Shown piece after piece: positions 13,098-64,000 of a stretch of 64,000 nt of DNA. Position numbers and translations under genes: made by a program. Numbering within the stretch: the stretch's first letter is position 1; the number at the start of each line of letters is the position of its first letter. The notes below the pieces were generated by a model that saw only the letters and a program-made list of their open reading frames with translations, searched no databases and was not told the origin of the DNA. This DNA comes from an uncultured Nitrososphaeraceae archaeon (GTDB taxonomy: Archaea; Thermoproteota; Nitrososphaeria; Nitrososphaerales; Nitrososphaeraceae). The DNA is taken from assembly GCA_963729045.1 (NCBI GenBank), contig CAVSMN010000010.1, positions 106,559 through 170,558 of the forward strand, in the 5' to 3' direction.

Positions 13098-13126
13098 AAA
13101 AGTGCAAAGTACAGGATTTGAAGCCG
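13098..13126 (-). repeat. tRNA-3'-derived repeat, degenerate
   Basis: aaaagtgcaaagtacaggatttgaagccg. Confidence 0.7.
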
Positions 13127-22133: not shown

Positions 22134-22161
22134 AAAATGCAAAGTGTTGGATTTGAACCCG
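22134..22161 (-). repeat. tRNA-3'-derived repeat
   Basis: aaaatgcaaagtgttggatttgaacccg. Confidence 0.8.
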
Positions 22162-29040: not shown

Positions 29041-29067
29041 AAAGTGCAAAGTGCGGGATTGAACCCG
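29041..29067 (-). repeat. tRNA-3'-derived repeat
   Basis: aaagtgcaaagtgcgggattgaacccg. Confidence 0.9.
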
Positions 29068-36802: not shown

Positions 36803-37519
36803 TTATTTTGGTGGAAGTTTTTCCTCTTCCTGCTCCTCTTCAGTATGAAGCAATTTGTACACTCCTGCTGCTATTAGTCCACCAGCAATTGGTGCTACCC
36901 AATAAATCCACTGATAAGCAAAATCCCAAGTTATTAAGGCAGGGCCAAAGGAGCGAGCTGGATTTAATGACCCTCCAGTAATTGAGCCTCCGAATATAAC
37001 ATTGAATCCGAGAGTAAAACCTATGGCTATTCCAGCCAATGGAACTATCTTAAAGTTTTTTGAAGTGGTTGTGGCCAATACAACATATACCAATGTAAAT
37101 GTCATTACTGTTTCTAAGATAAGGGCTCTTACAATGTTACCGTCGGAAGGCAATGTTACACTAGCTGACATTTCAGAGCCAAAAATTGAATAGACAACTG
37201 CAGCTGCAAGCACGGCACCAATAATCTGAGCAATGATGTACACAACTGCTTCCTTTCTACCAATTTTCTTGGCCACTAAGAGACCTATTGTAACTGCAGG
37301 ATTGACCTGTGCACCAGAACGATATCCTATGGCATATACAATAGCTGTTAAGACTAGAGCATGAACCAAACCTATTCCAATTACTCCTAATTGTCCACTA
37401 TCAGAATAGACGGTTGCAGCAGAAGCAATTGCATATACTAAAATAAAAGTACCTACAATCTCTACCAAAAATTTGTTTCTTAAAGACGGTCGGAAAATCT
37501 TTTGAACGTCTTTATCCAT
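36803..37519 (-). CDS. aquaporin (MIP family)
   Basis: SGAQVNPAVT and GGSLNPARSFGP (two NPA motifs), six TMs. Confidence 0.97.
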   Translation of the reverse strand: MDKDVQKIFRPSLRNKFLVEIVGTFILVYAIASAATVYSDSGQLGVIGIGLVHALVLTAIVYAIGYRSGAQVNPAVTIGLLVAKKIGRKEAVVYIIAQIIGAVLAAAVVYSIFGSEMSASVTLPSDGNIVRALILETVMTFTLVYVVLATTTSKNFKIVPLAGIAIGFTLGFNVIFGGSITGGSLNPARSFGPALITWDFAYQWIYWVAPIAGGLIAAGVYKLLHTEEEQEEEKLPPK

Positions 37520-37648
37520 GTTCCTTACTAATAGTCGCAAATATATTTAAATGATGGTATAATCCCAATTTTAGAGAATCAATGTCTTTTGAGTTGAGAT
37601 AATTGATAAAATTAGAACATCATATTCTTATGATTATTATTCATGTGA

Positions 37649-37689
37649 TCAAATCCCGCTTGAAAAGTGCAAAGTGCGGGATTTGAACC
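37649..37689 (-). repeat. tRNA-3'-derived repeat, hairpin form
   Basis: tcaaatcccgc-ttgaaaagtgcaaagt-gcgggatttgaacc. Confidence 0.92.
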
Positions 37690-38360: not shown

Positions 38361-38380
38361 AAGGTGCGGGATTTGAACCG
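38361..38380 (-). repeat. tRNA-3'-derived repeat
   Basis: aaggtgcgggatttgaaccg. Confidence 0.85.
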
Positions 38381-40367: not shown

Positions 40368-40461
40368 AAAGTGCGAAGTGCGGGATTTGAACCCGTTTCT
40401 ATGACATGATTAGCCAAGGTTTAATTTACTATAGTTAATAACAATAAGGAACGGGTTCAAA
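40368..40461 (-). repeat. tRNA-3'-derived repeat (40368-40396) with inverted T-loop echo (40450-40461)
   Basis: aaagtgcgaagtgcgggatttgaacccgt ... aacgggttcaaa. Confidence 0.92.
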
Positions 40462-42675: not shown

Positions 42676-42789
42676 TTCAAATCCCGCTTGAAAAGTGCGA
42701 AGTGCGGGATTTGAACCCGCTTCTTCTTTTGTCCAGTTCAAATCCCTTTGTTCAGTGAGGGAGAAAGAGAACCCGCAATCCCTCTATCT
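42676..42789 (-). repeat. composite tRNA-3'-derived repeat (hairpin form plus second unit)
   Basis: ttcaaatcccgcttgaaaagtgcgaagtgcgggatttgaacccgc; 42735-42789 resembles the reverse complement of 63893-63941. Confidence 0.92.
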
Positions 42790-43973: not shown

Positions 43974-44041
43974 GTAGACAAGCGGGTTCAAATCCTTATC
44001 TGAAGAAAGGAGAAGAAGTGCGAGGTGCGGGATTTGAACCC
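43974..44041 (-). repeat. tRNA-3'-derived ~65-bp element with terminal inverted repeats
   Basis: gtagacaagcgggttcaaatcc...gaagaagtgcgaggtgcgggatttgaaccc. Confidence 0.95.
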
Positions 44042-44264
44042 TAAGTGATTATTATGATCTTGTTTTCACAAAAATTGAAACCAAATAGATGAAAAATTCT
44101 GCCATTCTGATTCTTAGATTTGCTATCATTCTTCCTGTATCATTTGTTAAATTAATTGCATGTAATCCATTTAGATTGGATTATCTATGCTCAATTCGAG
44201 TGGGATTAATATCGATTCCAGTACAGGTCTTAACAAAAAGGGGTAATTTTTTGGATATTTTCCT

Positions 44265-48416: not shown

Positions 48417-48660
48417 CGCTTTCTCGACGCCATAAAGAATCTCTGAGCTTTTATCCTTGGTTTGAGGGAAGGAAGGAATACCCGTAATGTTTCATCTAAA
48501 TATCATGTTTAAAATATAAAAATATGCCGCTGCAAACACTTTAGTACGAAACTGTCATAGTTCATTAATTCTCCTTTTTTCAAGTAACTTTTAATTAAAG
48601 AAGTTGCTTTGAGACATTTAGGCATAAATTTTTAATAAAATGGGCTTTTAATACAATATA

Positions 48661-49642
48661 GTGGATGATTTAACATTTAGACAATTGATGGAATCAAAAT
48701 ATTATCATCCAGAGGTTACAGATGTCATTTTTGATTCCGATAAAATGTTAGAAATGGGCATAGTTGCTATTAATAGTACTGAAAGAGGATTTGTTATAGT
48801 ATGGGATAAAATAATGCTTGATTCCTTGTGGAAGTTTTATAAAGTTGGTATACTCCTTGCTGAAAAACATGCCAAAGAAAGGGGTATCAAATTTAGACTA
48901 ATTGTTGAAATTACGAAAGAAAACATGGAGTCTGTTAAATCATTCAAGTATTATGAAATAAAACATATTGATAATATAAGAAGTAACTTTGCTGTATTGG
49001 ATAACAGGGCCTATATGGTGCAAATATTTCATAAGGAAAATGAGCCTCCTGCTCAGGCGTTATTTAGTAATACTAAAGCCCTAGTAGATAGTCAACAAGC
49101 ACTATTTAACAGATTATGGGAAATTGCAACTCCAATAGCAAACAGATTAAAAGAGATAGAATATCGTGATAAATTAAACTACCAGAGGATTTTAACAAAT
49201 CATAAAGAAATTCATAATGAAATAGATTCTTTAACATAACAATGTGAAAAAGAATTACTAATATTTTCGTCATTCAAATTAATTTATACTGTACTTAACA
49301 AGAATAACTTTGTAAATAATTTTAACTCATTGCTAAGAAAAGGTATTACAATTAAGATTCTCACCGACGATATTGATGAACATTTAATGAGTCATATTGC
49401 TCAAATAAAGGACAACAAATAAAGATAATCCGATGCAGTTTGGGTATAGCAACAAGTTGGGAGAATTTAATGAATTTATAATGTTAAGCGATAATAAGTA
49501 TGTCTTGCAAATAAAATATGACCAACAAAATGAAATAGTTGCCTCATTTTCAAATGAAGAGCATAATGTAATGATTCAAGAGATTCTATTTGAAAAATAT
49601 TGGAATGAAGTCAAGAGTCTTACAGTCATTAGCAATAATTAG
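48661..49642 (+). pseudogene. disrupted paralog of 50507-51487 (kinase N-terminal / TrmB-PLD-like sensor domains)
   Basis: MDDLTFRQL start, internal TAA at 49237, C-terminus QEILFEKYWNEVKSL in ORF 49433-49642. Confidence 0.75.
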
Positions 49643-49721
49643 ATAGTTTTAGATTCAATAATTGAAGGTCATTAAAACAAGGATTGATAAAATGTTGAAC
49701 GCAATGATGCGCTAATAGTAT

Positions 49722-49768
49722 TGATCTTTGCGCGGGATCAAGGACGAACCGCATTATTTGAACCCACT
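49722..49768 (+). repeat. family-2 ~47-bp repeat, copy 4
   Basis: tgatctttgcgcgggatcaaggacgaaccgcattatttgaacccact. Confidence 0.8.
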
Positions 49769-50364: not shown

Positions 50365-50433
50365 GTAGATAAGCGGGTTCAAATCTATCTTAAGAAAAGA
50401 AGAATGAGGTGCGAGATGCGGGATTTGAACCCG
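50365..50433 (-). repeat. tRNA-3'-derived ~65-bp element with terminal inverted repeats
   Basis: gtagataagcgggttcaaatct...gaggtgcgagatgcgggatttgaacccg. Confidence 0.95.
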
Positions 50434-50506
50434 AGTTAAGAGTTGTCAAGGATAAGAGACATGTCTAGGACAACTTTTTAATAAAATGGAGTTTTGATAC
50501 AATACA

Positions 50507-51487
50507 GTGGATGATATAACATTTCGACAATTGAAAGAATCTGGCTATCATCATCCCGAGGTTACAGAAGTAATTTTTGATGCCAACCAAATGTTTGAAA
50601 TGTCATTGCACTCGGTCAGTATTAGTGAAAAAGGCTACGATATAGTATGGGACAAGGTTATGATAGATTTTCTGAGAAAATATTTCAAAGAGGGCCTGCA
50701 ACTCCTTGAAGATTTGGCCAATAAAAGAGGATTAAGAAGAAGATTAATTGCAGAGACTACCGCAGATAATATTGAATTTGTAAATTCACTAAGTTATTCT
50801 GAAATAAGACACCTTGATAATCTCAGAGGAAATTTTGGAATATTTGATGAAAGGGCATATATTGTCCAAATTTTTCACAAGGATACAGAAAAACCAAATC
50901 AAGCATTTTGGAGTAATTCCATTACACTTGTAAGAAAACAACAAGCCCTGTTCGACGATTTATGGAAAATGGCTATCCCATTGTCGGCCAGAAATAAAGA
51001 GTTAACGTATCATGTAAATCCAGAATATAGGAAAACTTTTACTGATTATGATCACATATATCAAGAGGTAAAATCAATCCTTGAACAAAGTAGAAGGGAA
51101 TTATTAATATTTGCATCTTTTAAAATTTTGAAGAGAATATTTCACAATAAGGATTGGATCAATACTATCGCTTCACTGCTAGCAAGAAGAGTGAATACTA
51201 GAATATTGACAGATGATATTGATGGAGATTCAGCAAGAAAAATTATGCGGATCCAAAATGAAGATAAGGACAAAAGAATCCATTTTGGATATAATGACAA
51301 ATTAGGAAATTTCAATGAACTGGTTATATTAAGTGATGAGAAGTATGCTTTGCAAATAAAGTATGACCATCAAAATAAACTAATAGCATCATTCACTAAT
51401 GAAGAATCCAGTGTTATGATTCAAGAGATATTATTTGAGAAATGCTGGAACGAAGTAAAGAGTCTCGAAGTTGTGAATAGCAATTAG
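50507..51487 (+). CDS. stand-alone tandem sensor-domain protein (resembles N-terminus of the neighbouring kinase)
   Basis: IRHLDNLRGNFGIFD, QQALFDDLWKMAIP; no H-box. Confidence 0.75.
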   Translation: MDDITFRQLKESGYHHPEVTEVIFDANQMFEMSLHSVSISEKGYDIVWDKVMIDFLRKYFKEGLQLLEDLANKRGLRRRLIAETTADNIEFVNSLSYSEIRHLDNLRGNFGIFDERAYIVQIFHKDTEKPNQAFWSNSITLVRKQQALFDDLWKMAIPLSARNKELTYHVNPEYRKTFTDYDHIYQEVKSILEQSRRELLIFASFKILKRIFHNKDWINTIASLLARRVNTRILTDDIDGDSARKIMRIQNEDKDKRIHFGYNDKLGNFNELVILSDEKYALQIKYDHQNKLIASFTNEESSVMIQEILFEKCWNEVKSLEVVNSN

Positions 51488-51851
51488 ATTAATTACTATG
51501 AGGATAAAAATTTCAACATTATATAAATGAAAAATAAAGTCGACTGGTCCAATAATATTGAATAAATTTAGAGTGGCTTTACAAATTCTTACTAATACTC
51601 AATCTAGTTTTTGCCTTTACTATCAGGAGAACAATCGCCGCTTTCTACGAGCCTTGTGATTTCTCGTTTTTATCGGCATTTTCTTCAGCATCTTTCAAGT
51701 TGTTTATCAATCTTTTGTCTGCCTTGGTGTCATTGCTTGTCCTTTTCCAAAACTTTCCTAATTTTCTAAATAGCACAGAGTCTTTCAACTAATTCTACAT
51801 GTATACTATAGATGAATTTGCTTATAAAGAAAATAACGTCATAAAAACAAG

Positions 51852-51914
51852 TGCGAGATGCAGGATTTGAACCCGCACTTCGCTCGTACCTTAACCAGGC
51901 TGGGCCAACCTCGC
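51852..51914 (-). pseudogene. tRNA pseudogene (Leu-like) lacking anticodon and variable arms
   Basis: GCGAGGT TG GCCC AGCCTGGTTAA GGT acgagcgaagt GCGGG TTCAAAT CCTGC ATCTCGC A: acceptor stem, D-arm and T-arm present; 63 nt. Confidence 0.8.
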
Positions 51915-51937
51915 CTGAAATAAAATTAACAATACGG

Positions 51938-51946
51938 TATTAATAA
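51938..51946 (-). promoter_or_regulatory. candidate archaeal TATA box of the tRNA remnant
   Basis: TTATTAATA about 24-32 nt upstream of the 5' G; AT-rich context lowers specificity. Confidence 0.35.
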
Positions 51947-51961
51947 CTTAATGCTGGGCTG

Positions 51962-52246
51962 TTATTTGCAACTATTCCATATTTTCCCCTTTCTAAAAGC
52001 AATTTTTCTAGCAGAGCTAATGTCACGAATCCCACCTCGGTTTTTTTCCGTACCTTGTCTTATGGAGGTTCCGTATTCGTCTACAATTTCAATAATTACC
52101 TCGTCTTTGAAATACGATTTTAGAATTCCAGCTATTTGATGAGATAGAGCCAAGCTTCCATCACCGATTCTAACTATTTTAGTTGGAGACTCTATTGATG
52201 ACAAAACAAAACTGATTTTTTCAACTGTAGAATTAACCGAAGACAA
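51962..52246 (-). pseudogene. C-terminal fragment of an RNase H/YqgF-like archaeal protein
   Basis: VRIGDG...EIVDEYGTS...RDISSARKIA; no obvious N-terminus. Confidence 0.45.
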
Positions 52247-52737
52247 AATTGTTCTATGCAGGTTTGATTATAAGAGATATAACAACAGAGGAAAAATTAT
52301 CAAGAACCAAAGTAAATACGATCAAATTAAGAATTAAAGAAAACTCTAAACCAATGTAAATTAGATTTTTGAAATACACTTGTATGGTTAGATTCTATTG
52401 ATACCAGGATTAGGCTCGCTTGTCTTTCCGCTCGAGGATTGAATGAAATAATTAAATAGTGAGACTTTGTTCATCCTTGAATTATATCCCTGCGGACCGA
52501 GCAAAGTTAGACTACGGCTAATAGACAGGTCGTGTATTCATTTTTTGAGATACTTGCAATGCAATAAGTTATCGAATATGTTTGACTTACAAAAACAATT
52601 ATTGTATAGATGCTGTACGATTTCAAAGTCTTTCAAATTCTCCACCATCCTAAAGTAATTGTTTCTCTTTGGGAATAATATACAATTTATTATTATATAA
52701 GATTCGTATATAAGAAAATTATCAAATAGATAATACA

Positions 52738-53112
52738 TTGATTTACCCCATCAATTGTTACCTTTCAATGACTAATAACAGTATTAGGAAAAAAATACTT
52801 TATCAAATACCTGTATTATTGATAATACTTGCGATATCCGTTCCAATGGCCACTGCTTCAGGTTTATCCAATGTCTTTTTTTCTTCTCCTAGTATGTCAG
52901 TAAATCAACTTGTATATGCAGAAGATGAGGTTTCCAGTGGTGGAGATCATTTAACTTCATCAACTACTACTGACCCAGTCTTAGGACACAGTCTAATAGG
53001 CTTAACAGTCACTAAAGAAAATGCTAATCCTTCTTTAGTTGAAGAGACTGAAGAACAAGATCTTGATTGTAGATACGTTTCAGAAAAGAATTTCAAAGTA
53101 TCAGAGGAATGA
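52738..53112 (+). CDS. host-type secreted hypothetical protein abutting the GC-rich island
   Basis: Signal-like segment, AT-rich; stop 4 bp before the NRPS ATG. Confidence 0.55.
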   Translation: MIYPINCYLSMTNNSIRKKILYQIPVLLIILAISVPMATASGLSNVFFSSPSMSVNQLVYAEDEVSSGGDHLTSSTTTDPVLGHSLIGLTVTKENANPSLVEETEEQDLDCRYVSEKNFKVSEE

Positions 53113-53116
53113 TGAC

Positions 53117-56100
53117 ATGCCGCAATTTGTTCCAAACCAATTGAATCCCGGCCACGACGGAGGAGAGAAGGTCGCCGAGTTGCGCCCGCTCGCACAAGGG
53201 CAGCCTGATCTGAACGGAGTTTGCGGCCTCAGCCGTCCTCAAAGTATAGTACGCGAGCATGCAAGCAATTCAATTCGCTGGGCTCCTGACGAGCGGCTCA
53301 ATCATCTTCTCGAGGAAGCCTGCGTCCGCTTCGCGACGAACGATGCCGTCATTGGAAGCGGCATCGTTCTGAGTTATCGCGATTTCGACCGCCGTGCCAA
53401 TCAGCTCGCGCGTCATCTGCTCGCACACGGAATCAAGTCCGGCGACCGCGTCGCAATGATGTTTGACAGATCACCAGAAGCATACGTGGCGATGCTTGCG
53501 GTAATGAAAGTCAATGCGGCCTATGTGCCACTCGACGCTGCCTTTCCGATTGAACGCGTCCGCTTCATCCTCGGGGATGCCAACGTTTCCGCCATTCTGT
53601 CAATGTCGAGTTTCGCGGTGCGCCTCTCCGGCGCCCAGGTCAACAAGATATTTCTCGATTCGGAGAGGCAGGCGATCGGTGCACAGGCAGCCAATTCGTT
53701 GACTGGCGTTTCGCCGCCGACCGAGCCCCTCTCCTACATCATTTACACATCGGGCACAACCGGTAATCCGAAGGGTGTTTGTATCGGACACGCAAGTATT
53801 TGCAATTTCGTGCGCGTCGCCGCTGAGCTTTATGGCTATTGCGCCCGGCGATCGCGTCTATCAGGGCATGTCGATAGCGTTCGATTTCTCCGTCGAGGAG
53901 ATCTGGGTGCCGCTGATGTGCGGCGCGACGCTCGTGCCGGGCCCGACTGGCAGGACCCTGATGGGCGACGAGCTCGGAGACTTTCTGCGCAAACGCCGTG
54001 TGACCGTAATGGCTTGTGTTCCGACGCTGCTCTCTACTATAGAGCAGGACGTGCCGGACTTGCGGATCCTGTTGGTCGGCGGCGAGGCTTGCCCGCAAAG
54101 TCTCGTGGCCCAATGGTATCGCCCCGGCCGCCGCATTCTCAACACCTACGGCCCCACCGAGGCGACCGTCACAGCGGCAATGACCGAGCTGCGGCCGGAC
54201 AAGCCGGTCACGATCGGCGTACCGCTCCCGACCTATTCGATCGTCATCCTCGATCCTAACGAGGACAATACCGTTCCGATAGGCGAGATAGGCGAGATCG
54301 GTATCGCGGGCATCGGATTGGCGCTTGGTTACATAAATCGCGATGACCTGACTAAGAAGAAGTTCATCCGCGATTTCCTGCATATCAAGAACAATCCATC
54401 CGGCAAAATCTATCGCACCGGTGATGTTGGTCGAATCATCGAGAACGGCGAGATAGACTACCGCGGTCGGATCGACACGCAGGTCAAGATCCGCGGCTAT
54501 CGCATCGAGCTCAAAGAAATCGAAGCGGTGCTACTCGACCTGCCACAGGTCGCTCAAGCCGCCGTGACGACATTTGAGATTGAGGAGAGCGTCGTCGAAA
54601 TCGTCGCCTATTATGCTCTCAAGCGGGGTGTCGAGCTGCCGCATAGGGAGATCTGGCAGGCACTGCGCAGCAAGCTTCCCGTCTACATGGTGCCGGCCTT
54701 CTTCGAGCAGGTCGACACCATACCGATGACGTTGAGCAACAAGGTCGACTACAAGAGGCTGCCCAAGCCGCAGCCGAAGCGTTTTTCCGCTACGCAGGTG
54801 TATGTCCCGCCCAAAACCGACCGCGAGCGAATGGTGCACGACGCGCTCGCTGGCGTCCTTTGCATCGAGCATGTCTCGACCGAGCACCACTTCTTCAATG
54901 ACCTTGGTGCCAACTCACTGTTGATGGCACGCGTCTGTGCGGCAATCCGCAGGAAACCGGGCATGTCGAACTTGTCGATGCGCGATATCTATATGCATCC
55001 GACGATCGCCAGGCTGGCGCATCATCTCGATTCATCGATCGACGGATCTGTCGCAACGAAGCCGGAACCCTTCCATGTTCCGTCGACCTTGTCGTACGTC
55101 ACGTGCGGGGCCCTGCAGATTGGATTCACCGCGGCCTATCTGTTGTTCGGACTCTTTATCTTCGTGGCCGGCATTCAATGGGCGACCGCCATCGACAGCG
55201 TGGTGGAGATCTACGTGCGCAGCGTCGCGTTCGGCTCAGGATTGTTTGTTGCGCTGATCGCGCTTCCCGTCGCGGCGAAATGGGTGCTGATAGGTCGCTT
55301 CAAGGCGCAATCGATTCCGATCTGGAGCTTTGCGTATTTCCGCTTCTGGGTCGTCAAGACTCTGATGCGCACATCGCCTGTGGCTGCCTTCATTAGCACA
55401 CCACTCTACAACGCCTATCTGCGCCTGATGGGCGCCAGAATCGGCCGCAACGTGATGCTGAGGTGCCAGTTCACGCCGGTCTGTACCGACCTTGTGACGA
55501 TCGGTGACAACACCATCGTCAACAGTGAAACGAGCCTGCTCGGCTATCGTGCGCAGTCTAACTTCATTCATATGGGCCCGGTTACGATCGGCAGCAATGC
55601 GTTCGTCGGCGAAGGGAGCGTGCTCGACATCGATACTACGATGGGCAACAACACTCAGCTCGGTCATGCCTCGTCACTGCAGAGCGGCCAGCGGGTGCCG
55701 GACGACAAGCGCTACCATGGCTCTCCGGCGGTCGAGACGTCCTCGGACTATCGCCAGATCGAGTCCAAGAATGGTGCTGATCTCCGAGGCGCCATCTATG
55801 TGTCGCTTATCCTCGCGACAATGATCATGATTGCCGGGCCTGCCATGATGATCCTCATCTACCACGTCTGGGATCTATTTTGCCCGACTCCTCTAACCAC
55901 TCTGCATTGTACAACGTTCTTCTCCATGTCGACTCCCTTGCTTCTCGCCATTTCGGCGGCGCTGTTCTTCGGCGCGCTTGGCATCGGTCTGGCTGGTGTG
56001 TATGTCATCCCGCGCCTCTGTATGAGGGGGCTGCGGCCCGATGTAACCTACCAGAATTTCGGCTTCCACTACCTGCTGCAGAGCATCATCCGAGGCATCA

Positions 56101-57291
56101 GCAACTCGGGCTTCTTCAGCTCGCTTTTCGGCGACTCATCAGCCGTCGTATGGTACATGCGCTACGTCGGCTGGAACTTGAACACGGTCCATCAAACCGG
56201 CTCGAACATGGGAAGTGACCAGAAGCACGACAACCCGTTTCTCTGCAATATCGGCAGCGGCACGATGATTTCGGACGGGCTCAAGATGATGAACATGCAG
56301 ATGTCGCCGACGTCGTTCCGGCTTGCCGAGTCGAAGATAGGCGACAACAACTTTCTGGGCAACGGTATCTCCTACCCACCGAATGGTCGCACCGGATCCA
56401 ACGTCCTGTTCGGGACCAAGACATTGGTCCCGATCGACGGCCCGGTGCGCGAGAATGTCGGGCTACTTGGTTCGCCGGCCTTCGAGATTCCGCGCAACGT
56501 CTGCCGTGATCGCGACATATGTGCCTCGTTCGACGAGCAGACACGTCTCGCCCGTCTCCGCCGCAAGAACATGTACAATTTCGTCACAGCCTTGATCTTC
56601 ATCACAAGCCAGTGGGTGGTAGTGGCTGCCGCGTTAATGCTCACGCGAGTCGCAATTGCGAACATCGATCATTTCGGCACCTTCGTGTTCTTCGGAGCCA
56701 GCGTGGCGGATATTGGATTGAACATGGCCTTCCTCATCGTGCTCGAGCGCGCGATTATGAGATTCAAGCGACTCAAGCCGCGGCTCGCCTCGATCTACGA
56801 TCCGTATTTCTGGTGGCATGAAAGGCACTGGAAGTTAAATCGCTTTCCCAATCTTGACCATGTTCGCCGGCACCCCGTTTCGCGGAATACTGCTTCGCGC
56901 CATGGGCATGAAGGTCGGTGCCAAGCTGTTCGATTGCAGTTTGGGTATCCCGGAACGCTCGCTGATCGAGGTTGGCGACTACACCAATCTGAACGAGGGT
57001 TGTGTGTTGCAGGCACATTCGCTAGAGGAAGGCGTTTTCAAGTCGGACTATATCCGGCTCGGCAACAGGTGCTCGGTCGGCCCGGGGGCCTTAGTTCACT
57101 ACGGCGTCAGCACCGGAGACGACGTCGTGCTCGACGCCGATTCGTTCCTGATGAAGGGCGAGATCCTGGATTCTCATACGGAGTGGTGCGGAAATCCGGC
57201 CAAGTTGGTGCGCCGTCATGTAGCTCGGGCAGAGGTTTGCGTCCAGGACGTCGCCGACACCACCGCCCGAAATGACTTCGCCCCACAATGA
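53117..57291 (+). CDS. Pls/PosA-family single-module membrane NRPS (A-T-TM/terminal domains), two frameshifts (~53839, ~56845)
   Basis: YTSGTTGNPKG, FDFSV, NTYGPTE, YRTGD, GRIDTQVKIRGYRIE, T-domain LGANSL, TM helices and hexapeptide-repeat blocks (LRLMGARIG, LRAMGMKVG). Confidence 0.9.
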
Positions 57292-57742
57292 GCGACAAGA
57301 TCAGATGCTAAAGAAGATGACCACCGACAATTGGGAAGCGGTGGTCGAGATTGAGCTCCGTGCCGGCCAGGAAGACTTGATGGCGAGCAATTCTATTCGG
57401 TTGCCGAGGCGCAGTTCGATCCCGACACGCGCCCGCGCTGCTGTTTATGCCGAGAAGCACGTCGTCGGCTTTCTGATGTATGACGTACAGAAAAAGAAGG
57501 GCAAGGCGCAGAAAGCCTCGATCTATAACTTCATGATCGATTGGAAGCACCAAGACAAAGGCTATGGTCGCGCCGCGCTGAGCAAGGCTCTGCAGGAGAT
57601 CCGAGCGATCCCGGGGGTGAACAGGATATCGATTCGCTATATGCCAGAAAATCCGATTGCGAAGCCGTTCTATATCATCTTCAGATTCGTGGAGGTGGGT
57701 CGGGACCGCGATGGCGACGTGATCGCGGTTTTGAAACTATAA
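57288..57742 (+). CDS. GNAT N-acetyltransferase (BltD/polyamine acetyltransferase-like) with indels
   Basis: DNWEAVVEIEL, VGFLMY, FMIDWKHQDKGYGRAAL, YMPENPIAKPFY; ATGA overlap with NRPS stop. Confidence 0.8.
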
Positions 57743-58377
57743 TGTCAGACGGTACAGTCGATTACTCGCTGAAGCGAGCAATCGAATCCCTCTCCTTGCC
57801 TGGTCTGCTGATCGGCCATCGTGTGATTTCGCAAGGCGATGAGCTCGCGCTGCTCCACGAAGAGATGGCGTCGTTATCCTTCCCTACAATCGAGAGGCGC
57901 CGTGCCAGCGGCGCCGCACGACGTGTGGCGCGCGAACTGATGAACTCGATGGGCTTTTCCGGCCTTCCGATCCTCAGGAGCACATTTGGCGCCCCGATCT
58001 GGCCCGCCGGGGTCGTAGGCTCGATGGCACATGATGATCGAATTGCTGTTGCCGCTGTCGGGCTGCGGCGTGACGTGGAAGCGGTCGGCATCGATATAGA
58101 AACTGTCGCGCCGTTGCCGCCGGACATGCTCGAGCTGATCGCCACACCGCGGGAGCGGCATGCGATTGCTGATAACCCATTGGGGGTAAAAATTCTTTTC
58201 GTCATCAAGGAGGCAGTCTACAAGGCGGTCTATCCGCTCGATCATGAGTTTCTGGATTTTCACGATATCGAGGTCGACTTTGCCGGCCGGCTCGCGACGA
58301 CCCAAGCCGGACGCACGCTCGCGCTCCACTGGTGCGTTTTCTCTCACGTGCTGGTCGTGGCGACGATTCATATCTGA
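57742..58377 (+). CDS. 4'-phosphopantetheinyl transferase (EntD/Sfp-type)
   Basis: GAPIWPAGVVGSMAH, VGIDIE, FVIKEAVYKA; ATG overlaps GNAT TAA. Confidence 0.92.
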   Translation: MSDGTVDYSLKRAIESLSLPGLLIGHRVISQGDELALLHEEMASLSFPTIERRRASGAARRVARELMNSMGFSGLPILRSTFGAPIWPAGVVGSMAHDDRIAVAAVGLRRDVEAVGIDIETVAPLPPDMLELIATPRERHAIADNPLGVKILFVIKEAVYKAVYPLDHEFLDFHDIEVDFAGRLATTQAGRTLALHWCVFSHVLVVATIHI

Positions 58378-59807: not shown

Positions 59808-59874
59808 TCGCGGGTTCAAATCCCGTACTTCGCACCTCTTCTTTTCTCTAAAGGATTTGAACCCGCTTGTATAC
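59808..59874 (+). repeat. tRNA-3'-derived ~65-bp TIR element, opposite orientation
   Basis: gcgggttcaaatcccgtacttcgcacc...ggatttgaacccgcttgtatac. Confidence 0.95.
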
Positions 59875-62170: not shown

Positions 62171-62336
62171 TTAAATTACTTAAAATTTATTTTTATTTGT
62201 AACACAATTGACATACTCAAATAATAATAATATATTCTAATAAAATAGGTAACAATAACAATATACTCAGAAGGCGGAGTTGGCCTTAGAAGAAGTACCT
62301 GGATTACAAGTAACACTGGATTTTTATCGTGAGCGA

Positions 62337-62390
62337 AGGGATCGCGGGTTCAAATCCCGCACTTTCCACTTTTATCGCGGGATTTGATCA
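62337..62390 (+). repeat. tRNA-3'-derived repeat, hairpin form, opposite orientation
   Basis: agggatcgcgggttcaaatcccgcactttccacttttatcgcgggatttgatca. Confidence 0.93.
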
Positions 62391-63897
62391 TATGAATAAT
62401 AACCATAAGAATATGATGTTCTACTTTTATCAATTATCTCAACTCAAAAAACATTAATTCTCTATAATTAGGATCACATCATCATTTAAATATATTTGCG
62501 ACTATTAATAAGGGAAAATGGATAAAGACGTTCAAAAGATTTTCCGACCGTCTTTGAGAAACAAATTTTTGGTAGAAATTGTAGGTACTTTTATTTTAGT
62601 ATATGCAATTGCTTCTGCTGCAACCGTCTATTCTGATAGTGGACAATTAGGAGTAATTGGAATAGGTTTGGTTCATGCTCTAGTCTTAACAGCTATTGTA
62701 TATGCCATAGGATATCGTTCTGGTGCGCAGGTCAATCCTGCAGTTACAATAGGTCTCTTGGTGGCCAAGAAAATTGGTAGAAAGGAAGCAGTTGTGTACA
62801 TTATTGCTCAGATTATTGGTGCCGTGCTTGCAGCTGCAGTTGTCTATTCAATTTTTGGCTCTGAAATGTCAGCTAGTGTAACATTGCCTTCCGACGGCAA
62901 CATTGTAAGAGCCCTTATCTTAGAAACCGTAATGACATTTACATTGGTATATGTTGTATTGGCCACAACTACCTCTAAGAACTTTAAGATAGTTCCATTG
63001 GCTGGAATAGCCATAGGTTTTACTCTCGGATTCAATGTTATATTCGGAGGCTCAATTACTGGAGGGTCATTAAATCCAGCTCGCTCCTTTGGCCCTGCCT
63101 TAATAACTTGGGATTTTGCTTATCAGTGGATTTATTGGGTAGCACCAATTGCTGGTGGACTAATAGCAGCAGGAGTGGTACAAATTGCTTCATACTGAAG
63201 AGGAAGAGGAAGAGGAAAAACTTCCACCAAAATAATGTTTGTACAAGAACTTGGATTCAGATATGAATGAGGTATTATACACCATACCTGTTTGACGGTC
63301 TCCACAGGTAACAGCCTACAATTAGGATAATGGTAATATGTATACAACAAGCACAAATTCAAACTCTGTCTTTGTAATTGGGTCAATAGTGCCGATTGCA
63401 GAAGACGGACTTGACCAAACTATAGACTCTGGTGTAACCGTGCATTTAGAAGGCGATGGTGGATAACCCCGGGAATTAAACACTGACTTAATAGTGGACT
63501 CGATAATCAGACTTGGAGTCACTCTGAGTAACTCAACAGCAGTAAATTCAATCTTCGCAGCACCCCGAACCATATTCCAACATACATTCGCATTTGAACT
63601 GGTCGTGACAAACAAGCAAGATTTGGTAAGTAAACCCTATAGCGTCACTATAACCGTGGGTTCTAATTTTGAAGGAATAATTGATTCAGGTAACAAATAT
63701 TTTATATCTATGTTCAAGAAAACTCTGGTAATAATGTAGGTGTACAATCTGGTAGTGAAAGTCATGGACGCTTACTCCCCAATCTTCCAAGGACAATCTA
63801 AAGAGCAGGATAGTCAAGTAATATCTTACTTTCAAATCTAAAATTGAACCTACTCATCTAGAGTGGTTTCAAAATGCATCGCTCTAAATTTAAGACA
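62347..63897 (+). repeat. ~1.55-kb module, copy B, bracketed by tRNA-derived repeats
   Basis: Inverted duplicate of 36139-37689. Confidence 0.95.
62518..63198 (+). CDS. aquaporin (MIP family), second copy with a +1 frameshift near the C-terminus
   Basis: Protein identical to 36803-37519 up to GGLIAAGV; ggagtggtac versus ggagtgtac. Confidence 0.93.
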   Translation: MDKDVQKIFRPSLRNKFLVEIVGTFILVYAIASAATVYSDSGQLGVIGIGLVHALVLTAIVYAIGYRSGAQVNPAVTIGLLVAKKIGRKEAVVYIIAQIIGAVLAAAVVYSIFGSEMSASVTLPSDGNIVRALILETVMTFTLVYVVLATTTSKNFKIVPLAGIAIGFTLGFNVIFGGSITGGSLNPARSFGPALITWDFAYQWIYWVAPIAGGLIAAGVVQIASY

Positions 63898-63981
63898 GAG
63901 GGATCGCGGGTTCTTATTCTCTAAGCAAAGGGATTTGAACTATCTAAACACGAAGCAGGTTCAAATCCCGCACTTCGCACC
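63897..63981 (+). repeat. composite tRNA-3'-derived repeat, opposite orientation
   Basis: agagggatcgcgggttc...gggatttgaact...gcaggttcaaatcccgcacttcgcacc. Confidence 0.92.
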
Positions 63982-64000
63982 TGATATTTAGAGATTCTTT

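Follow-up and report, generated by a model that had tools for sequence, protein, structure and literature searches.

An anticodon-less second copy of tRNA-Gly(CCC) as a probable recombination joint within a cassette array of a Nitrososphaeraceae archaeon

In this work, we focused on a 63-nt tRNA-like sequence found in the draft genome of an uncultured Nitrososphaeraceae archaeon (NCBI GenBank assembly GCA_963729045.1, here G000). Among close homologues of a protein encoded nearby, the source names are those of Candidatus Nitrosocosmicus. It lies on the minus strand, at positions 51852-51914, of a 64,000-nt stretch of contig C10 (G000:C10:106559-170558), hereafter the window, to which all positions given without a contig name refer. 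Of a tRNA, the sequence retains both acceptor strands (5' and 3'), the D and T arms and a discriminator A, and a run of T residues follows directly at its 3' end. The anticodon stem-loop is missing, so that the cloverleaf expected of a functional tRNA gene cannot be drawn. On its 5' side stands a short duplicated piece of chromosome, and on its 3' side a row of gene cassettes separated by copies of a tRNA 3' end (i.e. att copies). An earlier inspection of the letters alone, referred to below as the original prediction, had described the sequence as a dead or repurposed tRNA-Leu at the head of a repeat array, serving as primary insertion site and possibly as promoter.

The derivation from a tRNA and the loss of the anticodon were both borne out. 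The Rfam tRNA model RF00005 aligned to the 63-nt copy from end to end (model positions 1-71) with 35.6 bits, above the gathering score of 29 (local search E 1.1e-5), and two positions of the alignment stand in for the 13 model positions of the anticodon arm. ARAGORN, run over the whole 64-kb window, returned zero tRNA calls. The parent gene was found in the same genome: on contig C13, ARAGORN called an intact and ordinary 75-nt tRNA-Gly(CCC) gene (G000:C13:91703-91777), which reached 58.3 bits with the Rfam model as against 35.6 for the copy. When the 16-18-mers of the 5' end of the copy were searched across the genome, they matched only this gene and a 13-nt remnant on the same contig. The assignment to tRNA-Leu was therefore mistaken. 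The expectation that the lineage holds an intact tRNA beginning in this way proved right, as did the proposal that the copy and the dispersed repeats come from one tRNA type, that type being tRNA-Gly(CCC); the GCGAGGT at the 5' end is indeed exactly complementary to the ACCTCGC of the repeat at 44016-44044.

Alignment of the copy with the intact locus revealed 376 shared bp at 95.7 % identity (C13:91360-91735), made up of tRNA bases 1-33 and 343 bp of upstream flank. The first 33 bases (51882-51914, minus strand), i.e. the acceptor 5' strand, the D arm and the 5' strand of the anticodon stem, are identical to the intact gene. The next 17 nt of the parent make up its anticodon loop, the 3' strand of the stem and the variable loop; in their place, the copy carries the five nucleotides GAAGT (51877-51881, minus strand), after which it rejoins the parent at the T stem. 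The T arm, 3' acceptor strand and discriminator that follow (51852-51876, minus strand; nhmmer 51849-51876, E 3.3e-7) form a core common to the att copies, which travels with the adjacent cassette. Where 11 nt had been thought to replace the anticodon and variable arms, a replacement is thus present, but the first six of these are unchanged tRNA (position 26 and the anticodon-stem 5' strand), and only the five of GAAGT are foreign. Two simpler accounts of the missing arm were rejected. A split, permuted or intron-bearing tRNA does not agree with a parent that is an ordinary 75-nt gene and with a copy that is shorter, not longer; a clean loss of the anticodon hairpin by slippage does not agree with the absence of GAAGT from the parent and with the additional loss of the variable loop.

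The duplicated flank (51915-52257, minus strand) contains (i) the TATA-like upstream region of the tRNA gene, which is conserved in 14 aligned sequences, and (ii) the last ~97 codons of a conserved gene of 216 aa, present as an open reading frame (ORF) fragment at 51962-52246. The TATA-like motif that had been noticed upstream of the copy is accordingly the intact tRNA-Gly gene's own upstream sequence. Within G000, the 216-aa gene is complete only on C13 (G000:C13:91005-91655; L001 3006-3656), where it stands upstream of tRNA-Gly(CCC). Over codons 4-98, the fragment in the window and the resident gene show 10 synonymous differences (a change of stop codon included) and 0 non-synonymous ones, and several nucleotide states in the fragment are either unique or common to other species. 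Such a purely synonymous pattern would fit an allele copied from the working gene of a close lineage, and would fit less well a duplicate that decayed in place. Duplication of a tRNA 5' end is otherwise exceptional in this genome: among the 30 tRNA genes of G000, none but tRNA-Gly(CCC) has an extra copy of its 5' 24-mer outside another tRNA gene. Its 3' 24-mer is found 14 times, whereas no other tRNA gene of the genome exceeds 5 copies.

As regards the 216-aa protein itself, it is conserved across Nitrosocosmicus and Nitrososphaeraceae and annotated merely as hypothetical. It gave a weak match to DUF460 in Pfam, below the cut-off, and zero matches in sequence searches of NCBIfam and PDB. It holds a GIDPG-type motif, which we take to be of the kind found in RuvC/YqgF-like nucleases; this motif is absent from the gene fragment in the window.

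The G000 draft consists of 22 contigs (2.85 Mb, 33-34 % G+C) and is 87 % complete, and both contigs concerned here end in repeats, which is the kind of setting in which a tRNA-Gly locus may be mis-joined or collapsed during assembly or binning. This explanation was given virtually no weight. A 489-nt contig from metagenome run X1 spans 51773-52261 with 0 gaps, bridging the element and both flanks. A 758-nt contig from run X3, which belongs to a different study, spans 51500-51911 and runs 30 letters past the junction, one letter short of the bridging rule applied. Contigs that carry the intact gene part from the window sequence exactly at 51882. Since the best metagenome match may be the source sample itself, stronger support for authenticity comes from the recurrence of the junction in independent assemblies, i.e. 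in genome G020, in two metagenome contigs and, as a variant, in the single-contig genome G041. As far as these data go, the assembly deletion that had been raised as a concern is thereby refuted.

To assess how widespread the anticodon-less form is, exact and near-exact junction patterns were searched over 34 genomes of the genus, many of them highly fragmented. Three of the 34 genomes carry it, namely G000, G020 and, added with a shorter pattern, G041. In G020 the junction is identical and lies on the same strand, 18.4 kb downstream of the intact tRNA-Gly(CCC) and inside the array; a Phage_integr_3 integrase stands directly behind the intact gene, and a PrimPol/D5-type helicase further on in the same interval. 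In G041 a junction variant, differing by one indel and one substitution, lies 9.7 kb downstream of the intact gene, again inside the array; a single att copy precedes it and at least 5 follow. The interval there holds ParB-like, transporter and copper-protein genes, and an integrase was not found in it. Both G020 and G041 therefore show, on single contigs, a co-oriented copy of the tRNA 3' part past the intact gene. The two metagenome contigs carry the G000-type junction between two ordinary cassettes, without tRNA bases 1-2 or any upstream flank. Exact-pattern scans for the junction gave 0 matches in viral contigs and, in genome contigs, only an unrelated actinobacterial metagenome-assembled genome, near relatives of the window's genome being possibly excluded from that scan.

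When the four contexts G000, G020, G041 and L034 were compared, the homologous left flank measured 343, 233, 124 and 0 bp, and the DNA to its left was unrelated in each of them. To the right, the DNA past the discriminator differed in 4 of 4 contexts, the neighbours on that side breaking at the core. The DNA right behind the intact tRNA-Gly(CCC) also varies, among 12 relatives, which argues that the intact site is active too. The original prediction had made the copy the head of the array and its primary site; the orthologous loci in G020 and G041 contradict this, as they place the copy inside the array, with the intact gene heading it. In G000, the intact gene with its full upstream gene likewise stands first in a separate array on C13, where six more att copies follow before the contig ends.

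The five foreign nucleotides are not without relation to their surroundings. Together with the preceding GC, GAAGT gives GCGAAGT beside the T stem, and the left half-site so formed, GCGAAGTGCGGG, exactly mirrors the right half-site, which consists of the T stem and the 3' acceptor strand. Because a left half-site mirrors a tRNA-derived right one, we regard GAAGT as element-side sequence, not as random filler; it would represent, with the GC, the outer part of a half-site that the integrase may bind. In G020, the 12-bp arms are perfect around a 7-nt loop, and the corresponding DNA hairpin was predicted at -15.6 kcal/mol, a value equalled by 0 of 200 shuffles. The arms measure 11 bp in G041. In the window copy the symmetry is degraded (-6.1 kcal/mol), its right half having arrived with another cassette, and in the intact tRNA just the 5-bp T stem serves as symmetric arm. 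Related 7-mers stand directly 5' of the T stem in G002, G046 and G047, at att copies that follow integrase genes at a distance of 13-20 kb. When 21 ordinary att copies from G000, G020 and G041 were compared, 7 of them showed the outer motif (up to 1 mismatch), mostly with variable-loop bases intervening before the T stem. An origin of the palindrome by inversion-type site-specific recombination was rejected, for the T loop is asymmetric and the mirror stops exactly at the acceptor strand.

The position of the exchange may be read from the first cassette past the joint (50434-51851), which contains a 326-aa ORF (50507-51487, plus strand) and is bounded distally by the att copy at 50407-50433. 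In G020, this cassette occupies another position of the array and follows a different left arm (L016 6370-6818 corresponding to window 51875-51428, 88 %); homology begins at 51875, inside the T arm. Because one cassette joins two left arms, the 63-mer is chimeric, its left ~40 nt and right ~23 nt having separate histories, and the exchange point would lie at the 7-nt T loop or immediately 5' of it. A T-stem-loop class of tRNA integration sites is already described in the sections of the literature consulted (PMC8371274, PMC4383910), and the crossover placed here matches it.

With the relatives in hand, the possibility can be weighed that the copy is expressed as a tRNA-like small RNA, transcribed from the inherited tRNA promoter and acting either as a regulator or, in minihelix form, as substrate or decoy of RNase P, of the CCA-adding enzyme or of tRNA-targeting nucleases. 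The copy retains the D loop, the T loop and a pairable acceptor stem, it scores above the Rfam gathering threshold, the upstream region of the intact gene is nearly unchanged and the T run follows; its minimum-free-energy RNA fold is more stable than shuffled sequences (z -2.44). The same fold pairs the inner GCGAAGT with the 3' strand into an imperfect minihelix, in agreement with the earlier claim that this 7-mer extends the T stem. Nevertheless, the fold consists of two separate hairpins rather than a cloverleaf, and the 3' half has been exchanged with the neighbouring cassette, which argues that the two acceptor strands were not inherited together. All changes seen are C/T opposite G and hence uninformative on pairing. 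Constraint at the RNA level is disfavoured because the metagenome copies, which lack bases 1-2 and the upstream region with the promoter, keep the rest of the sequence. We accordingly hold a small-RNA role to be quite improbable. In the metatranscriptome contigs of run X15 the tRNA-like copy is uncovered, which has no bearing on expression as small RNAs escape such contigs; one contig of that run spans 51958-52188 with 4 differences and may derive from the intact locus of a relative.

The cassette array was delineated through its att copies. The T-loop motif (up to one mismatch) occurs 25 times in the window as against 1.5 expected, a count reached by 0 of 100 shuffles, and most of the motif-aligned copies correspond to the last ~28 nt of one tRNA, i.e. 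the T arm, 3' acceptor strand and discriminator. Counted with an nhmmer profile, nine co-oriented copies lie downstream of the 63-mer (E up to 0.011), with 3 weaker ones (E 0.12-3.2) and a degenerate one at 49740. From the joint outwards, those on the minus strand are a tRNA-Gly 3'-end-like copy at 50407-50433 (E 3.2e-7), copies at 44016-44042 (E 6.5e-8), 42692-42720 (E 1.7e-9) and 40368-40395 (E 4.3e-9), a partial copy at 38362-38379 (E 0.0037), copies at 37664-37689 (E 3.3e-7) and 29041-29067 (E 2.9e-5), a diverged copy at 22138-22161 (E 0.011) and the most distal one at 13100-13126 (E 0.001). Three further copies have the opposite orientation (plus strand) and lie on the other side of the joint: at 59810-59837 (E 5.9e-8), on the far side of a high-GC island, at 62344-62372 (E 1.6e-7) and at 63955-63982 (E 5e-8), the contig ending just after the last. 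A co-oriented downstream array had been predicted and does exist; the number of its members, given as 14, has to be lowered to 12-13. As had also been proposed, the repeats are 3'-end att copies such as serial integration at a tRNA gene leaves behind. Beyond window position ~13 kb, the sequence becomes collinear with the DNA past the G020 array, so that the most distal copy marks the end of a G000 array of ~39 kb, as compared with ~8 kb in G020. Of the larger cassette ORFs between 36.8 and 51.5 kb, seven of ten lie on the strand opposite to the tRNA-like copy; with the T run that follows the copy, this makes a promoter function for the cassettes unlikely.

This layout also bears on a second possibility, namely that the copy is a maintained second landing site, analogous to the attI of integrons, whose symmetric core takes up cassettes and spares the working tRNA-Gly, the downstream array having been built there. 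Several observations speak for it: the 12-7-12 core, perfect in G020 and nearly so in G041, is far better than that of the intact tRNA site; three species and two metagenome contigs preserve the junction; a different cassette comes first behind the copy in each of 4 contexts; and more att copies lie behind the copy than before it (at least 5 versus 1 in G041, and also in G020), with ~39 kb and 9-13 att copies following it in G000. On the other hand, a large unit integrating at the intact tRNA and pushing the older array outward gives the same layout, and the variable DNA behind the intact gene in 12 relatives shows that the intact site takes part as well. Moreover, the core is degraded in the window (-6.1 kcal/mol), no adjacent integrase is seen in G000 or G041, and only 3 of the 34 genus genomes carry the copy. 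Overall, we judge a landing-site function unlikely, albeit less so than expression as a small RNA. The same doubtful standing applies to its wider form, in which the remodelled tRNA-Gly would act as a decoy attB and main landing pad of an integron-like cassette system in Nitrosocosmicus; if this were true, the G000/G020-type and G041-type junctions would reflect repeated formation or selection instead of shared descent.

We further looked for the enzyme. The integrase behind the intact tRNA-Gly(CCC) of G020 matches PF16795 (Phage_integr_3; E 3.1e-8). In 9 of the 34 genus genomes, tRNA-Gly(CCC) is followed at a distance of 150-1330 bp by an orthologue of this integrase (58-78 % identity) or by a fragment of one: the gene is full-length and stop-free in six (G002, G006, G008, G013, G020 and G024) and degraded or partial in three (G007, G009 and G012). 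Between the intact tRNA and the copy, an integrase is present in G020, and none was found in the G041 interval, in the G000 window or on C13. No recombinase was met among the window ORFs of at least 110 aa, PF00589 gave zero matches in the G000 genome although it was positive in 14 of 14 control genomes, and relatives of the G020 integrase were not found in viral contigs. Elsewhere in G000, other contigs do contain four Phage_integr_3-like loci. Two of the four adjoin a tRNA gene: an integrase directly behind tRNA-Ala(CGC), split over two frames (G000:C11:165925-166987), and one directly behind tRNA-Thr(GGT), with an in-frame TGA (G000:C15:73366-73767).

Our preferred reading, to which we assign a probability of roughly 0.7, is that the 63-mer is a non-decoding, rearranged second copy of tRNA-Gly(CCC) and an attR-type joint inside a cassette array anchored at tRNA-Gly(CCC). 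It is most likely neither a working tRNA nor the site at which the array grows. Under this reading, the left part of the 63-mer would be the arm of an upstream-side unit, an arm that runs from 343 bp of captured host flank through tRNA bases 1-33 to GAAGT; the right part, from the T loop to the discriminator, would be the common att core and belong with the downstream cassette. The enzyme would be an archaeal tyrosine integrase of the Phage_integr_3 type, as encoded behind tRNA-Gly(CCC) in the relatives. Two routes could have brought the tRNA 5' half and the gene fragment to the element side, and both fit. In the first, an element would have gained the tRNA-side flank through imprecise excision, as in specialised transduction. 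In the second, a deletion at a 2-nt microhomology (GC) would have fused the anticodon stem to an attR half-site and left a dead gene, after which later elements bearing an intact gene and some flank may have entered upstream by homologous recombination.

A number of points weigh against this reading or parts of it. The copy is restricted to 3 of 34 genus genomes, and the cognate integrase was not found in G000 (87 % complete) or in G041. In G000, C13 carries the intact gene and C10 the copy; both contigs end in array, and no overlap between their ends was found; since the contigs are separate, the position of the copy relative to the intact gene is taken from the relatives. The junctions of G041 and of G000/G020 are compatible with one origin or two. 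Besides, the flanks of the anticodon-less copies are nearer to the intact locus of their own genome (96.9 % and 93.4 %) than to each other (91.1 %), a pattern that points to gene conversion, to repeated homologous recombination in the flank or to independent origin. The purely synonymous differences of the gene fragment would also fit purifying selection on a translated fragment of 94 aa. Finally, with the tRNA upstream region and the T run both kept, the copy could be transcribed.

Comparison with systems described elsewhere places the locus among several of them. According to the portions consulted of the Islander study (PMC4383910), an island entering a tRNA gene regenerates the gene, a co-oriented fragment of which is left at the island's far end, and repeated use of one tRNA leads to arrays; a crossover class in the T-stem region accounts for 1836 of 3919 islands. 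The locus analysed here resembles these islands in its integration at a tRNA gene, its displaced fragment and its tandem array at one tRNA. It departs from the fragments described there, which correspond to the 3' part, in that the fragment includes the 5' 33 bases of the tRNA and 343 bp of flank, with the anticodon arm cut out. Islander, as set out in that article, also demands an integrase for each array member, whereas most units here have none.

In the tycheposons of Prochlorococcus, as far as covered in the consulted part of the preprint (bioRxiv 10.1101/2020.12.28.424599), tRNA genes seed islands, integrases are specific to one tRNA and partial tRNAs separate stacked elements; the model further assumes uptake of host flanks by the elements for the islands of Prochlorococcus. 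The captured gene fragment with its synonymous-only differences fits that model. Unlike tycheposons as presented there, our case concerns an archaeon, a Phage_integr_3-type integrase and small dense cassettes, and the captured flank is that of the tRNA side, including the tRNA's own 5' half. Integrated elements of Thermococcales were described, in the part consulted, with long att sites of 102 and 243 bp, the direct repeat common to both ends covering the entire tRNA gene and more, and archaeal attB sites can exceed the tRNA gene (PMC8371274). The direct repeat of the present locus exceeds the tRNA gene as well (376 bp, 343 of them upstream), but unlike those sites it is interrupted by the replacement of the anticodon arm, and its flank measures 233, 124 and 0 bp elsewhere. 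As the flank shrinks in this way, the ~376-bp repeat looks like captured flank and not like a required att site. A survey of thaumarchaeal integrated elements (PMC6563490) contains neither 'Nitrosocosmicus' nor 'tRNA-Gly' in the main text as consulted.

The likeness to integrons lies in a row of mostly co-oriented, single-gene cassettes with imperfect-palindrome sites between them, most cassettes lacking a recombinase, and in a cassette order that varies between relatives. Unlike in integrons, the sites here are copies of a tRNA 3' end and the cassette genes are read against the sole 'head' promoter. The sites can form hairpins, and might in principle recombine as folded single strands in the manner of attC. 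An IntI-type integron was rejected, given that PF00589 is unmatched in G000, that the window ORFs of at least 110 aa include no recombinase and that seven of ten larger ORFs oppose the head. Streptococcal cis-mobilizable elements (CIMEs) are integrase-less, att-flanked units stacked beside an integrase-bearing element and mobilised in trans. Their likeness to the cassettes described here may serve as a lead; they differ in being bacterial and linked to conjugation.

Additional features were recorded in the two G000 arrays. Many att copies are composite, with an inverted partial copy of the T-arm 5' half 13-35 nt past the tRNA 3' end; such joints can form a long hairpin, as at 43982-44042, 50373-50433 and 59810-59866 and also behind the intact tRNA on C13. 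The C13 array contains a second tRNA-Gly-derived site (G000:C13:97597-97704; L001 9598-9705), in which the exact first 13 nt of the tRNA are followed by 52 nt of other sequence, the outer motif, the variable loop, the T arm and the 3' end; its first 45 nt align with the anticodon-less copy better than 300 of 300 shuffles. The att copy at 62344 is preceded by a faint likeness to a tRNA 5' half (62270-62372), equalled by 6 of 300 shuffles and possibly due to chance. The neighbouring cassettes at 48626-49644 and 50472-51489 (192-aa and 326-aa ORFs) are paralogues and share repeats of 131 nt (83 %) and 226 nt (73 %) at a spacing of 1845 bp. Three aquaporin (MIP) cassettes are distributed over two arrays (36803-37540, minus strand; 62518-63198, plus strand; L001 13018-13734), and an alpha/beta-hydrolase cassette, present in triplicate on C13, has relatives in the window as well as in G041 and the metagenome contigs.

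Adjoining the captured gene fragment, an island of ~5.7 kb (52738-58377) has 44-58 % G+C compared with 33 % for the genome. It encodes an AMP-binding enzyme that has a carrier-protein domain and is split, probably through a frameshift, over two overlapping frames (53039-54259 and 53775-57275). A GNAT acetyltransferase and a 4'-phosphopantetheinyl transferase come next. The island looks like foreign DNA resembling that of a nonribosomal peptide synthetase (NRPS).

These findings do not alter the established picture of elements that enter tRNA genes and leave pieces of them in place; what they contribute is mechanistic detail and a substrate ready for recombination assays. The joint fixes the integration target as tRNA-Gly(CCC) and ties this target to one integrase family, present at the gene in 9 of the 34 genus genomes. 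One cassette on two left arms places the crossover with respect to the T loop, and the mirror-image left half-site suggests how the enzyme may recognise its site, through 12-bp arms around the 7-nt T loop. The synonymous-only fragment of a core gene would represent a direct footprint of host flank moving with elements, or recombining around them, a step that is assumed by the tycheposon model. As the host is a soil ammonia-oxidising archaeon, the joint informs on the machinery behind the cassette arrays of such archaea.

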